A stretch of DNA of 64,000 bases from an uncultured delta proteobacterium (GCA_963729715.1 CAVSPA010000007.1:256001-320000); one strand, 5' to 3'. Positions 56,710 through 60,795 are shown, counted from the stretch's first letter. Notes: a model not told the origin generated them from the letters alone. Numbers and translations: made by a program.

Positions 56710-58086
56710 CTATTGCGATTTCCGATGCCAGATATCCAGGATTCTGACGGCCTTATCTTCAGGCAGGGTGTGCAGTCCCCTCTCGTAGTTGGAGAGGGTC
56801 TGCCTCGTCACACCTAATGCTTTGGCCAGTTCCGCCTGGCGCAAGTAGTTATCAGCCCTGAATTGCCTGATAATCGTTTGATCGGCAATCAGATCTTCTG
56901 CAGTTTTTGGAATATCAGAAGCGCGAGACTCCTGCCTGTACTTTCTTCCCCGGACCGGCCTTTTCTGCCGAAATGGCAATTTAGCTCTTCTGGGGGTATC
57001 GGCTACCTGCCAGAGATCTTCCGATAACTTCACCGTGAGCGCCGTATTAAGCCAGTCGTTGAAGTATCCTCTGCTCCTCGCCATCGGCTCTAAGACCGGA
57101 ATACTTTCTATCACGCCTAAGTCTTCGAGACGCTGATGGGCTTCGATAAATGCATCAACCGTCTGTCCCGGGTGCCTCCAGTTTATATCCTCGCCGCAAA
57201 AATTTAGAATAGTCTTCGGTGTAGCGCTGGGGAGCATCCCCTTTTTTTCGGCGACAGTGCCGACAATTATCCAGTATGTTCCCAGCTTTTTTGTCAAGGC
57301 ATCATGATAAGGGCTCAGGTGCAGCAGAGCTTTACTGTAATACCCGATCCAGAACAGTCCCTCAGGGTCGAGGAAATGTGAAAGCGCCTGGCCGCAACGA
57401 AAACGAAAAGAAGTCCATTTCTCCGCTTCACGCTTATACTCTATATCCAATATGTCCAAAAGCCTGTCCGGCCGTTCCTTTCCGAAGGTGACTTCCCCTC
57501 CGGTTTTATAGTCTCTCCAGGACATGGTGAGGCGCATGTCGGCAAGCCGCAATACCTCCTGTTTAAAGTCTTCATAGAGATTCTGCCTGCTGCCATGCCG
57601 GAGGCGAACTCCGCGCGATTGAGCAATGTCATCAAGACTGATACTGGCGATTCCTTTCTTGGGATCCGGCAGTTCCGCAATACGCGACATGAGAATCAAA
57701 AATACATCCGCAGTCTCCACCGATAAATTATGGACTGCTTTTCTCAGGCTTCCGGAATAGATGAAATCAAGGCGCGGTGTGTAGTATAGCGCTATGGAGT
57801 GATGAAAGCGGTTCCCGAAATCGGGTGGAGGCGCAAAGAAGAACGTTACATGCCCAGCCCTTGTTTCGTATTTGTACAATGGGCGGCCGTACAAATCCGA
57901 CGCCCACGCGCTTTTCGGACCGCCTGCATATATGGCGCGCAATGCGGAATGGATCAAGGGGCTGATGGGAACAGGGAATCTTTTCTTTTCACGATCTGAC
58001 TGACCTACAGGCAGCTTATCGATCTTCTGCTGAGTAAGGGAATCATGATGGTGTCTCATAAATGGCCTATTTATTTTAGCAACCAT
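56710..58086 (-). CDS. Hypothetical Rep-like protein with C-terminal XRE HTH
   Basis: C-terminal LRQAELAKALGVTRQTLSNYERG; central region only loosely resembles winged-helix initiators. Confidence 0.7.
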   Translation of the reverse strand: MVAKINRPFMRHHHDSLTQQKIDKLPVGQSDREKKRFPVPISPLIHSALRAIYAGGPKSAWASDLYGRPLYKYETRAGHVTFFFAPPPDFGNRFHHSIALYYTPRLDFIYSGSLRKAVHNLSVETADVFLILMSRIAELPDPKKGIASISLDDIAQSRGVRLRHGSRQNLYEDFKQEVLRLADMRLTMSWRDYKTGGEVTFGKERPDRLLDILDIEYKREAEKWTSFRFRCGQALSHFLDPEGLFWIGYYSKALLHLSPYHDALTKKLGTYWIIVGTVAEKKGMLPSATPKTILNFCGEDINWRHPGQTVDAFIEAHQRLEDLGVIESIPVLEPMARSRGYFNDWLNTALTVKLSEDLWQVADTPRRAKLPFRQKRPVRGRKYRQESRASDIPKTAEDLIADQTIIRQFRADNYLRQAELAKALGVTRQTLSNYERGLHTLPEDKAVRILDIWHRKSQ

Positions 58087-58304
58087 CTCTCACATGCATC
58101 GGGTTAACCCAATTTAAGGAATATAACAAGAGAGCTGTTTCATCCGCCGCCATCAATTACTGACATATACAGGATTCAGATGATTTTAGGAAGTGCAACT
58201 TGCAGGGAGGATTGTTTATTAGCCAGTATGTTTAAGAAAATATATTTAATGCATAAGGATACTTTTCTCTATAATCGATATTAATACGAAAATAAAACTG
58301 TGCA

Positions 58305-59549
58305 TCAAGCCGCTTCAGGCAGTTTTTCTACTTTGACCTCATAGCCTAAGGCAGTGATCCTTGATGTTAAACGTCTGACAAGATGTTGTTCATTTAACTT
58401 GTCGAAATAATCAGCACCAAGTTCATTGTAAGTGCGATGCTCTTTGATAATATGGTAAGCCATAACTAAGATGGTGTGGCCGACAGCAAGGGCTGCCCGT
58501 TTCTTCCCCCTTCTTGCCGCCAGGCGACGGTACCTGGCGCTCAAGTAGGTGTTTTTTGTTTTGGACGCTGCCCATCCAGCTTCCACCAAGGCGCTTTTGA
58601 GCCATTTGTTCCCCTGTGTCACTTTGCCGCTTCTTCGTTTTCCCGCGCTTTCATTGTTGCCCGGACTGGCTCCCGCCCAGGAGGAGAGGTGGGCATCTGA
58701 TGGGAAGCGTGACATATCGATTCCGATCTCGGCGATGATCCGCTCAGCGAACTTTTTTTTTACACCTGGAATGGTCTGGAGACCTTCAGCTTCCTCCTGG
58801 AAAGATTCCATCCTCTTCTCTATTTCATCGTTCAGCTTCTCGATGGCCTCGTCATACGAGGCAATCATCTGAAGCGTCAGTTTCAGGATGATACGATGAT
58901 GATCCGAAAAGTAACCCTCCAAGGATTTTTCCAGATCCTCGATCTTGTTCCTGAGACGCCCTCTGGCGAGATCAGCCATTTCCTGAGTGCTCATATCATC
59001 CTCGATCAGATGATGGATCATGTTCCGGGCAGATACCCCGTTGATGTCCGTTGCCACTGAAGAAAGCTTGATATTGGCATCCTCCAGAAACTTCTGGAGG
59101 CGGTTGATCTCAGAAGAACGCTTCTGGGTAAGTTTCTCACGGTAGCGCGTGAGGTCTCTTAACTCCCGGATCGGCTTGGGAGGAATAAAGCTCGCCTTGA
59201 CCAGGCCGTGACGAAGGAGTTGGGCAAGCCATTCGCAATCCCTTACGTCGGTCTTCCGTCCGGGAACATTTTTCACATCTCTGGCATTGGCCAGAATGAC
59301 CTCCATGCTGTCCTCCAGAATGTTGAATACCGGCTTCCAGTAAACCCCGGTGCTTTCCACAACCGCATGGGTGCAACCTTCTGATACCAGCCAGTCTCGA
59401 CAGGCCAGAAGATCACGGGTCATGGTGGAAAAGGTCTTGATGGTTGTCTTCGGTTTCTCATGGGGTTTGCCCACCGCCAGGCAAACAACGATGTTCTTCT
59501 TGTGGACATCGATACCGCAGCATCTCTCAATAATGGCTCCCATAATCAT
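58305..59549 (-). CDS. IS110-family recombinase/transposase
   Basis: GIDVHK, VESTG, KTDVRD (DEDD) and NESAG serine motif. Confidence 0.95.
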   Translation of the reverse strand: MIMGAIIERCCGIDVHKKNIVVCLAVGKPHEKPKTTIKTFSTMTRDLLACRDWLVSEGCTHAVVESTGVYWKPVFNILEDSMEVILANARDVKNVPGRKTDVRDCEWLAQLLRHGLVKASFIPPKPIRELRDLTRYREKLTQKRSSEINRLQKFLEDANIKLSSVATDINGVSARNMIHHLIEDDMSTQEMADLARGRLRNKIEDLEKSLEGYFSDHHRIILKLTLQMIASYDEAIEKLNDEIEKRMESFQEEAEGLQTIPGVKKKFAERIIAEIGIDMSRFPSDAHLSSWAGASPGNNESAGKRRSGKVTQGNKWLKSALVEAGWAASKTKNTYLSARYRRLAARRGKKRAALAVGHTILVMAYHIIKEHRTYNELGADYFDKLNEQHLVRRLTSRITALGYEVKVEKLPEAA

Positions 59550-59570
59550 GTCTCCTTTCTCTTTAAAAAA

Positions 59571-59697
59571 GGGGGCAGATTATCGATGAAAAATTTAATA
59601 CGCGTACTCCCAAAGGGGTAACAATCCGTGGTTCTTTTAATCTGCCCGGGTCAGATTACTACTCGGGGTATGACCACCAAAATATCGACGACCCTCT
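59571..59697. ncRNA. Candidate IS110 bridge/seek RNA region
   Basis: Two adjacent stems (59573-82/59638-47 and 59648-52/59690-94) enclosing segments that match the element junctions; strand not determined. Confidence 0.55.
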
Positions 59698-59898
59698 TCC
59701 TTTTGAAGAAAGGATATAATGTCAAAGAGCTATAAACAACTTATTTTCATGCCTTCGTGGTGCCCTCGCGGGGCATGTTGATTACTACGAAAATAGAACC
59801 GCCGAAGACTATAACAACTTATTTTCATGCCTTCGTGGTGCCGCCACGGGGCATGGTGATTTTTAAGAAAATATTTTTAGTACTTCATACATTATTAA

Positions 59899-60426
<528 letters not shown>

Positions 60427-60720
60427 CTACGAAAATAGAACCGCCGAAGACTATAACAACTTATTTTCATGCCTTCGTGGTGCCGCCACGGGGCATGGTG
60501 ATTTTTAAGAAAATATTTTTAGTACTTCATACATTATCTAAAAAATACCGGATTCTTGGATACGGCTCCTTGTTACTTTTCTTTTCAATAGGGTATCGAT
60601 AAACTACTCCTCGCAGTGCGGGGTAAATAATACTTGTGGGTTGGAAATATGGTTGGAAATGAGTCCTCTTTTAAAAAAATGGGGCGGTCTGAATGTAGTC
60701 TAACTCTATGATTTAATTAT

Positions 60721-60795
60721 TGGTGGTCCCACCGGGACTTGAACCCGAGTTTCCGGCGTGAGAGGCCAGCGTCCTAACCACTAGACGATGGGACC
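60721..60795 (-). tRNA. tRNA-Glu (CTC)
   Basis: Full cloverleaf GGTCCCA...TGGGACC-A-CCA; anticodon loop CT-CTC-AC; TTCAAGT T-loop. Confidence 0.95.

Follow-up and report, generated by a model that had tools for sequence, protein, structure and literature searches.

A probable sense-strand bridge (seek) RNA in the non-coding left end of an IS110-family insertion sequence from an uncultured delta proteobacterium

A stretch of 64,000 nucleotides (nt) from the genome of an uncultured delta proteobacterium (GCA_963729715.1, CAVSPA010000007.1:256001-320000; hereafter the window) carries at 58281-59783 an intact insertion sequence (IS) of the IS110 family with its recombinase gene on the - strand. 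Judged from sequence comparison, a bridge (seek) RNA with the orientation of the gene is in all likelihood encoded in the non-coding left end of the element, the 245 nt that precede the gene. The analysis establishes a module of two stem-loops with covarying stems, the covariation of its guide segments with the DNA that they match, the 2-nt core and the ends of the element. The IS is very probably a natural example of a bridge/seek RNA-guided element whose guide layout has been described before and whose geometry is not new. Positions are counted from the first letter of the window; "sense" denotes the recombinase strand, which is the - strand of the window, and the core that reads TT on the + strand is AA in sense.

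The recombinase (414 amino acids, aa) scores above the curated cut-offs of both of its Pfam families (PF01548, 94.7 bits against 29; PF02371, 71.9 bits against 21.3) and belongs to NCBIfam NF033542, the IS110 family RNA-guided transposase (272 bits, where 140 are required). Its nearest solved relatives, both distant, are the IS621 transposase (PDB 8wt6; E 4.5e-10) and the ISCro4 transposase (E 3.3e-06). Approximately 245 nt of non-coding DNA lie 5' of the start codon and only about 20 nt 3' of the stop codon. Three copies of the element were found in the genome, namely c1 in the window, c2 (C5) and c3 (C4). The c2 copy equals c1 save for three bases near one end. The c3 copy is 91% identical to c1, and its gene is broken, with recombinase residues 1-267 and 264-414 in two different frames (C4:660843-662359); it is probably a dead copy that has retained a complete guide module.

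The comparison covered c1-c3, 80 related loci and one paralogous empty site. A scan with one genome per species yielded 298 relatives, from which the best 80 loci were kept (48-94% identity; designated below by L numbers). A covariance model, R1, was built from the module sequences of 25 relatives and run on 64 of 95 sources, with duplicate copies and paralogue loci left out. Of 83 elements, 53 could be resolved with a hand parser. The guides were tested on 22 distinct guide types from the 44 elements with both ends located; three low scorers in this test (L021, L031 and L092) are loci in which the script mislocated the CATG motif.

A search with R1 detected the module in 63 of the 64 sources, every match being on the recombinase strand, and only L047 among them gave no match. 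In the relatives, the first stem-loop in sense comprises GGTCG, a variable segment, a TGGTGG hairpin CCCCG, 10 variable nt and TGACC. The second has an outer stem of variable sequence; the 5' side of its loop ends in ..CACCACGAATTGT and is followed by a small hairpin, CACG and a variable segment. The pairing was evaluated on an alignment of 62 distinct sequences that was fitted to the model and thus favours the structure: 91.1% of the cells are paired, as compared with 74.4% in shuffles, double-sided changes occur in 231 cells against 64.7 expected, and the covariation score is 0.481 against 0.170, with 16 of the 20 pairs changed on both sides. None of 500 shuffles equalled any structure measure, and slid controls were only 21-53% paired. 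An independent stem search that treated G-U and A-C alike gave, for 34 distinct outer stems of loop A, 278 Watson-Crick pairs, 14 G-U, 3 A-C and 1 mismatch. A search of Rfam with E values up to 1 returned nothing inside the element and only a tRNA further right.

The module precedes the gene in 41 of the 53 parsed elements and follows it in 12. In this respect L021, L028, L031, L033-L038, L052, L059, L062 and L092 stand apart from the other loci: in a single clade of recombinases, with approximately 50-55% identity to the protein of the window, some elements have the module upstream of the gene and others downstream, always in sense. Within this clade, the module has thus switched ends.

The ends of the element were placed by comparing copies. 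In the alignment of c1 and c2, the two are the same inward of the core and diverge just beyond it at the left end, in exactly 5 nt that read GTAGT in c1 and TTAAA in c2. Copies in other genomes are polymorphic just 5' of the left-end core as well (G/A in Tundrisphaera, C/T in L089-91 and a 3-nt deletion in L050). The 5 nt that precede the right-end core show no variation within any set of copies compared. The flanks of c3 are found rejoined in uninterrupted paralogous repeats at other loci, as cttaaaAA/TATTTTCTTAAAAA (C2:19455 and C5:148181); these paralogous empty sites read cttaaaAA/TATTTTC, the two flanks of c3 being joined. In all 22 guide types, positions 7-8 of the two 3'-side guide segments are AG or AA. 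Because these positions are equal in both segments, they correspond to a shared 2-nt core, and the preceding 5-6 nt represent the left target and the left donor. The crossover is thereby assigned, from the sequences, to the 2-nt core (AA in sense), and recombination would cross over at this dinucleotide without duplication.

The layout of both ends is conserved. Family-wide, the right end reads ATTTTC, 5 nt and the 2-nt core, and the left end 2-5 nt, CATG, a hairpin, a 10-nt segment and (C/G)ATGAAAAT. The subterminal inverted repeats of c1 (ATGAAAATAA at the left end, TTATTTTCGT at the right) fall within the 7-17 bp of the IS1111 group, and TGAAA(A/G)T on the left together with ATTTTC on the right is present at the two ends of 44 of the 53 parsed elements. 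An initial annotation of this DNA had reconstructed another empty site and another circle junction (GATTACTACG-AAAATAAAAC) around the 10-nt string TACGAAAATA. The string does occur at both junctions, as was claimed, because c1 directly abuts the right end of a miniature element (ATTTTC-GTAGT-AA); it is not the crossover, and with the ends misplaced both reconstructions were wrong. On the + strand, the corrected ends predict the circle junction ...CATGTTGA-TT-AATACG... (written longer, ...GGGGCATGTTGA-TT-AATACGAAAATAAAAC...) and the empty site ...AATCGATA-TT-ACTACG....

The loop segments covary with the junction DNA across the family. The 3' segment of stem-loop B agrees with the sequence just before the left-end CATG in at least 8 of 10 positions in 20 of the 22 own pairings, as compared with 13 of 462 cross-pairings. 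Likewise, the 3' segment of stem-loop A, which follows CACG, agrees with the C and the 7 nt after ATTTTC in at least 7 of 8 positions in 20 of 22 own pairings and in 43 of 462 cross-pairings. The left-donor guides of c1/c2 and of c3/L014 are one base apart, and the right end is altered likewise (GTATT versus GTAGT). The guide sets of c1/c2 and c3 thus differ in the loops together with the matching DNA, a natural retargeting within one genome. For the right target, 15 of 40 sites agree with the guide in at least 6 of 8 positions and 3 of 40 in at least 7, as compared with 76 and 11 of 880 cross-pairings, respectively; sites within one genome are not independent. Loop segments that covary with flanks and ends and share a common core, as expected of a bridge RNA, are thus present in this family, with a weaker signal for the right target. 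Stem-loop B would come first in the RNA and bind the target, the guides for the right and left target occupying its 5' and 3' sides, respectively. Stem-loop A would follow and bind the donor, its 3' side carrying the left donor and the core and its 5' side ending in the complement of the core. The features are listed in Table 1.

Table 1. Coordinates of the element, its junctions and the predicted RNA module in the window (strand "." where none applies).
Feature	Position	Strand	Description
IS110-family element, copy c1	58281..59783	-	About 1.5 kb, core counted at both junctions; from the alignment of three copies and the paralogous empty site for c3
Recombinase gene, 414 aa	58305..59549	-	Pfam DEDD_Tnp_IS110, E 6.5e-27; Transposase_20, E 5.9e-20
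Right target (flank)	58273..58280	-	Sense TATCGATT; fits the right-target guide; c2 has TATTCGAC
Core dinucleotide, right-end junction	58281..58282	.	TT on +, AA in sense; positions 7-8 equal in both 3'-side guides in 22/22 guide types
Left donor and right-end subterminal inverted repeat	58283..58293	-	Donor 58283-87, sense GTATT; repeat 58288-93, sense ATTTTC
Bridge/seek RNA module	59562..59693	-	Two stem-loops with internal loops; R1 match 110.4 bits, E 5.2e-25; stems covary in 62 distinct sequences
Stem-loop A, donor-binding loop (predicted)	59573..59647	-	3' segment equals the right end of the element; outer stem complementary in 34 distinct versions
Left-donor guide	59595..59602	-	RNA CGUAUUAA; 8/8 identical to right-end C-GTATT-AA
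5' side of loop A	59621..59637	-	Ends in GAUU, the complement of the core and the first 2 nt of the element; remainder in the same sense as the subterminal left-end segment; putative role
Stem-loop B, target-binding loop (predicted)	59648..59694	-	3' segment follows the left-end flank, 5' segment the right-end flank
Left-target guide	59654..59663	-	RNA AGUAGUAAUC; left target, core AA and 2 nt of the element; 9/10 against the left-end junction
Right-target guide	59681..59688	-	RNA UCGAUAUU; complementary to core and right target AATATCGA, 8/8 against 58273-58282 read in sense
Left end	59743..59781	-	TCAA, CATG, hairpin 59762-74, subterminal segment ACCACGAAGG at 59752-61, inverted repeat ATGAAAAT at 59743-50; layout kept in homologues
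Core dinucleotide, left-end junction	59782..59783	.	Positions 7-8 equal in 22/22 guide types; c1/c2 divergence begins directly outside
Left target (flank)	59784..59788	-	Sense GTAGT; sole c1/c2 difference at the left end (c2 TTAAA)
Miniature element without gene, about 78 bp	59784..59861	-	Composed of left end (about 50 nt), a short linker and right end (about 20 nt); c1 has this right end, ATTTTC-GTAGT-AA, as its left target

The initial annotation had recognised a two-loop guide RNA module in the non-coding end, with loop segments that match the junction DNA, and covariation supports this claim. The matches that it listed are present in the sequence, the two stem-loops fold as it described (A at 59573-647, B at 59648-94), and the covariation of loop segments with flanks across homologues, which it had named as the check, is indeed observed. 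Two of its three proposed guides are true guide-DNA matches. The string GATTACTAC occurs in the 64-kb window only at 59654-62 and 59780-88 (0.18 expected; 1 of 100 shuffles reached two). In the case of TTAATACG, present at 58281-88, at 59595-602 and at one other place, the count alone is not significant (1.12 expected; 17 of 100 shuffles reached three), and the match is convincing because guide and right end covary family-wide. The third match, a second target guide GTGGTTCT paired to AGAACCGC with one mismatch, is at chance level, as 50 occurrences with at most one mismatch compare with 49.4 expected in the window; moreover, the match overlaps an ACCAC motif conserved in homologues with other flanks. 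Hence GTGGTTCT does not qualify as a target guide.

The corrected ends also change the identity of the matched DNA. What had been taken for the left flank, TTAATACG, spans the core and the left donor and extends one base into the inverted repeat, and is hence the donor sequence of the right end. Similarly, only 2 nt of GATTACTAC, described as the end of the element, lie inside the element; the core and 5 nt of flank make up the remainder. The distance of 5 nt between the target matches, from which an atypical geometry had been proposed, vanishes, and the data give the two loops roles opposite to those first assigned (A for the target, B for the donor). The correction removes a supposed antisense bridge RNA of new geometry and leaves a layout with the published IS1111-type order, located upstream of the gene.

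The RNA is very likely the sense (-) strand, to go by the polarity of the guides: with the corrected ends, the 3' ends of the three clear guides lie at the core only on the recombinase strand, and not in the antisense RNA proposed earlier. Read in sense, the stems contain 165 G-U and 39 A-C cells; one U-G pair is found in 61 of the 62 sequences and one G-U pair in 50 of the 62, and at one stem pair 16 G-U and no A-C occur. We infer that an RNA is produced, that it is bound by the recombinase and that this strand is the one transcribed.

Several observations weigh against a sense-strand RNA with these guides. The right-target matches are short and their enrichment is moderate. A canonical right-donor guide is nearly absent, consisting of the core complement and 0-2 nt, and in some relatives the core complement itself is missing. 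The flank TTAAA of c2 fits the left-target guide of the c3/L014 type (TTTAAAAATC) and not the guide of c2 itself (AGTAGTAATC); possible causes are an alteration of the guide in place after insertion, with c1 as a later product, guidance in trans by an RNA of the c3 type, or gene conversion between the copies. As to the strand, subtraction of the two near-invariant G-U columns leaves 54 G-U against 39 A-C cells, 25 of these A-C being in one doubtful pair. A promoter scan of 58200-59900 found no site on the - strand, and in a hexamer promoter scan of 20 homologous regions the antisense strand scored better in 15 and the sense strand in 3; a TTG...-17-TAT..T pattern in sense is present in the closest relatives only. 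The promoter scans do not settle which strand is used. In two soil metatranscriptome runs from one study, contigs are 85-99% like parts of the element, the non-coding end included. At 59658, 59659 and 59662 their letters are those of the c3 type; these contigs represent sequences of relatives and are informative on neither strand nor transcription.

The promoter scores, no better on the sense strand, and a perfect TATAAT on the + strand (59716-21) would suit an RNA antisense to the recombinase, in which loop A reads the target (TTAATACG, GTGGTTCT), loop B reads the donor (GATTACTAC) and the crossover lies within TACGAAAATA. The two strands also fold about equally, and single-strand folding does not separate them (-36.5 versus -34.6 kcal/mol, z -1.86 versus -1.53). 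Such an RNA is nevertheless improbable, since the ends that it requires are contradicted by the comparison of c1 with c2, by the positions that vary among copies in other genomes and by the paralogous empty site. With the true ends, the 5' ends of the guides would lie at the core, unlike in IS621. The GTGGTTCT/AGAACCGC match does not exceed chance, and on the + strand the near-invariant G-U pairs would turn into A-C mismatches. Finally, the downstream module of the relatives is in sense, at the location where transposase-bound seekRNAs of several IS1111 elements were sequenced (Siddiquee et al., PMC11187229). The TATAAT of the + strand overlaps a perfect TTGACA of the - strand at 59716-59726 (TATAATGTCAA), neither having a good partner hexamer in c1. 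In L013, a strong antisense promoter pair, TTTACA-17-TATAAT, faces outward.

A sense RNA could also be read with the loop roles exchanged, the 3' segment of stem-loop B recognising the element's own left end (the right donor) instead of the flank. The match of this segment is conserved among copies with the same guide and reaches 2 nt into the element, and neither assignment of roles suits c2. The exchange is highly unlikely, as the positions 5' of the core vary like a flank among otherwise identical copies (c1/c2, Tundrisphaera, L089-91 and L050), the core occupies positions 7-8, so that the first 6 nt lie outside the crossover, and the paralogous empty site of c3 agrees with stem-loop B as the target loop. 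Equally hard to credit is a purely DNA-level origin of the internal copies, as protein-binding sites or leftovers of duplication next to incidental hairpins: it would suit the same-sense match of the 5' side of loop A to the left-end segment, which is unlike a canonical guide, but stem pairing is kept through those 231 double changes despite sequence drift, the guide segments change together with flanks outside the element, and the protein family is documented as RNA-using (PMC11208160, PMC11187229).

With stem-loop A as the donor loop of a sense RNA, its 5' side displays a further relation to the left end. Identity to the element's own subterminal left-end segment, the 10 nt before the inverted repeat, reaches at least 8 of 10 positions in 12 of 26 types (3 types were mis-parsed), as compared with 27 of 632 cross-pairings. 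This segment lies between the DNA hairpin and the inverted repeat, approximately 25-35 nt from the crossover. Clear same-sense copies are found in L017 (CACAACCAAT in both), L019 (ACCCGAAAC) and L064 (ACCCATG). The core complement terminates the 5' side of loop A in most types, with at most 2 further matching bases; the exceptions, noted by eye, are L045, L026, L032 and L033. Inspection by eye revealed no family-wide match of this loop side to the subterminal region of the right end. A canonical right-donor guide of at least 4 nt was considered as a general feature and rejected, as only c1 agrees in 4 of 4 positions (GAUU) and the others, by eye, in 2-3 of 4.

The same-sense copy cannot be equated with a canonical right-donor guide, because such a guide would be complementary and not identical. 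Tentatively, and with more doubt than confidence, the donor loop in the clade of recombinases of approximately 400-415 aa might read the right donor through the 10-nt same-sense copy of the subterminal left-end segment and not through a canonical guide. Donor recognition would then involve pairing with the bottom strand beside the inverted repeat, with the DNA hairpin looped out. The accounts of IS621 and of IS1111 seekRNAs consulted here (PMC11208160, PMC11187229) do not describe recognition of this kind, which, if true, would constitute a distinct mode of donor-end recognition. The covarying segment of loop A goes beyond the canonical four-guide model and is relevant to the reprogramming of the recombinases of this clade.

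A comparison with the seekRNAs of IS1111-type elements (ISEc11, ISPa11, ISKpn4 and ISPst6; Siddiquee et al. 2024, PMC11187229) reveals the same guide order in c1, the guide complementary to the top strand being placed 5' of that complementary to the bottom strand. In that account, the module lies downstream of the gene, a few members have an upstream non-coding region, and the transposases are stated to be 330-350 aa long. The c1 element shares with this group the subterminal inverted repeats (here ATGAAAAT / ATTTTCGT) and insertion without duplication, and has relatives with the module downstream of the gene, as in IS1111 elements (PMC11187229). It differs in its upstream module and its protein of 414 aa, both outside the description of the group, the named IS1111 elements having been compared by description only (PMC11187229).

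The likeness to the IS621 bridge RNA includes the two internal loops with the target loop first, and guides that cover the 2-nt core and have their 3' ends there (Durrant et al. 2024, PMC11208160; Hiraizumi et al. 2024, PMC11208158), as described for each guide of IS621 (PMC11208160). In both elements, the RNA precedes the gene within the left end (in c1, module 59562-59693 and start codon 59549), and the recombinase combines DEDD and Tnp domains (PMC11208160). By contrast, the order of left and right guides is reversed in each loop of c1, which does not have the IS621-type order; the subterminal repeats are 7-8 bp against 2-3 bp in IS621, the right-donor guide has shrunk to about the core complement, and the left end has an extra hairpin and a covarying 10-nt segment (PMC11208160).

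Among named elements, ISArsp3 (IS110-like, Arthrobacter sp. FB24 plasmid 2, NC_008538.1; 46.5% identity) contains the same module according to R1 (37.4 bits). Its layout is the same by eye, with TAAGTGAGTT on the 3' side of loop B against AAGTGAGTT at the left junction, AATGTCAGAT on the 3' side of loop A against the right end ATTTTC-ATGTCAG, and AG as the core. It differs from c1 in its guides and its host. We know of no experimental work on ISArsp3. A bridge RNA has been predicted in 85.7% of IS110 and 93.0% of IS1111 elements, and six structures are figured (Durrant et al., PMC11208160); the layout of c1 may already be in print.

Further copies of the miniature element that borders c1 lie beyond a nearby poly-A run and at C3:39351-39420. 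The right end of the C3 copy is of the c1 type (GTATT), and those of the window copies are of the c3 type (GTAGT). A palindromic repeat unit, tttttaagataat-actg-ataatcttaaaaa, after which comes TATTTTCTTAAAAA, is the target of c3, c2 and the miniature element. This unit is found at C2:19455, C5:148181, C5:139753, C7:305239 (approximately 49239 in the window) and C5:15611, several of the sites being uninterrupted. Many targets in the family have a left half that resembles a right end (ATTTTC, 5 nt, core).

The poly-A run, with 523 nt at 59901-60423, is the genome's only homopolymer of at least 40 nt. It is bracketed by a 111-bp direct duplication (59786-59896, again at approximately 60428-60538) that contains the miniature element and its flank. 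Run and duplication together look like an assembly artefact at a repeat. To the right of this repeat region, a tRNA-Glu (CTC) is encoded at 60721-60795 on the - strand. To the left of the element, a protein of 458 aa with a C-terminal helix-turn-helix (HTH_3, E 1.7e-09) is encoded at 56710-58086, also on the - strand. A second IS110-family element in the same genome, whose protein is 30% identical to the recombinase of the window, has 7 copies (C3, C4 and C5), and further distant members of the family, with 23-24% identity, lie at C7:411687-412844, C4:20804-21961 and C9:39233-40228.

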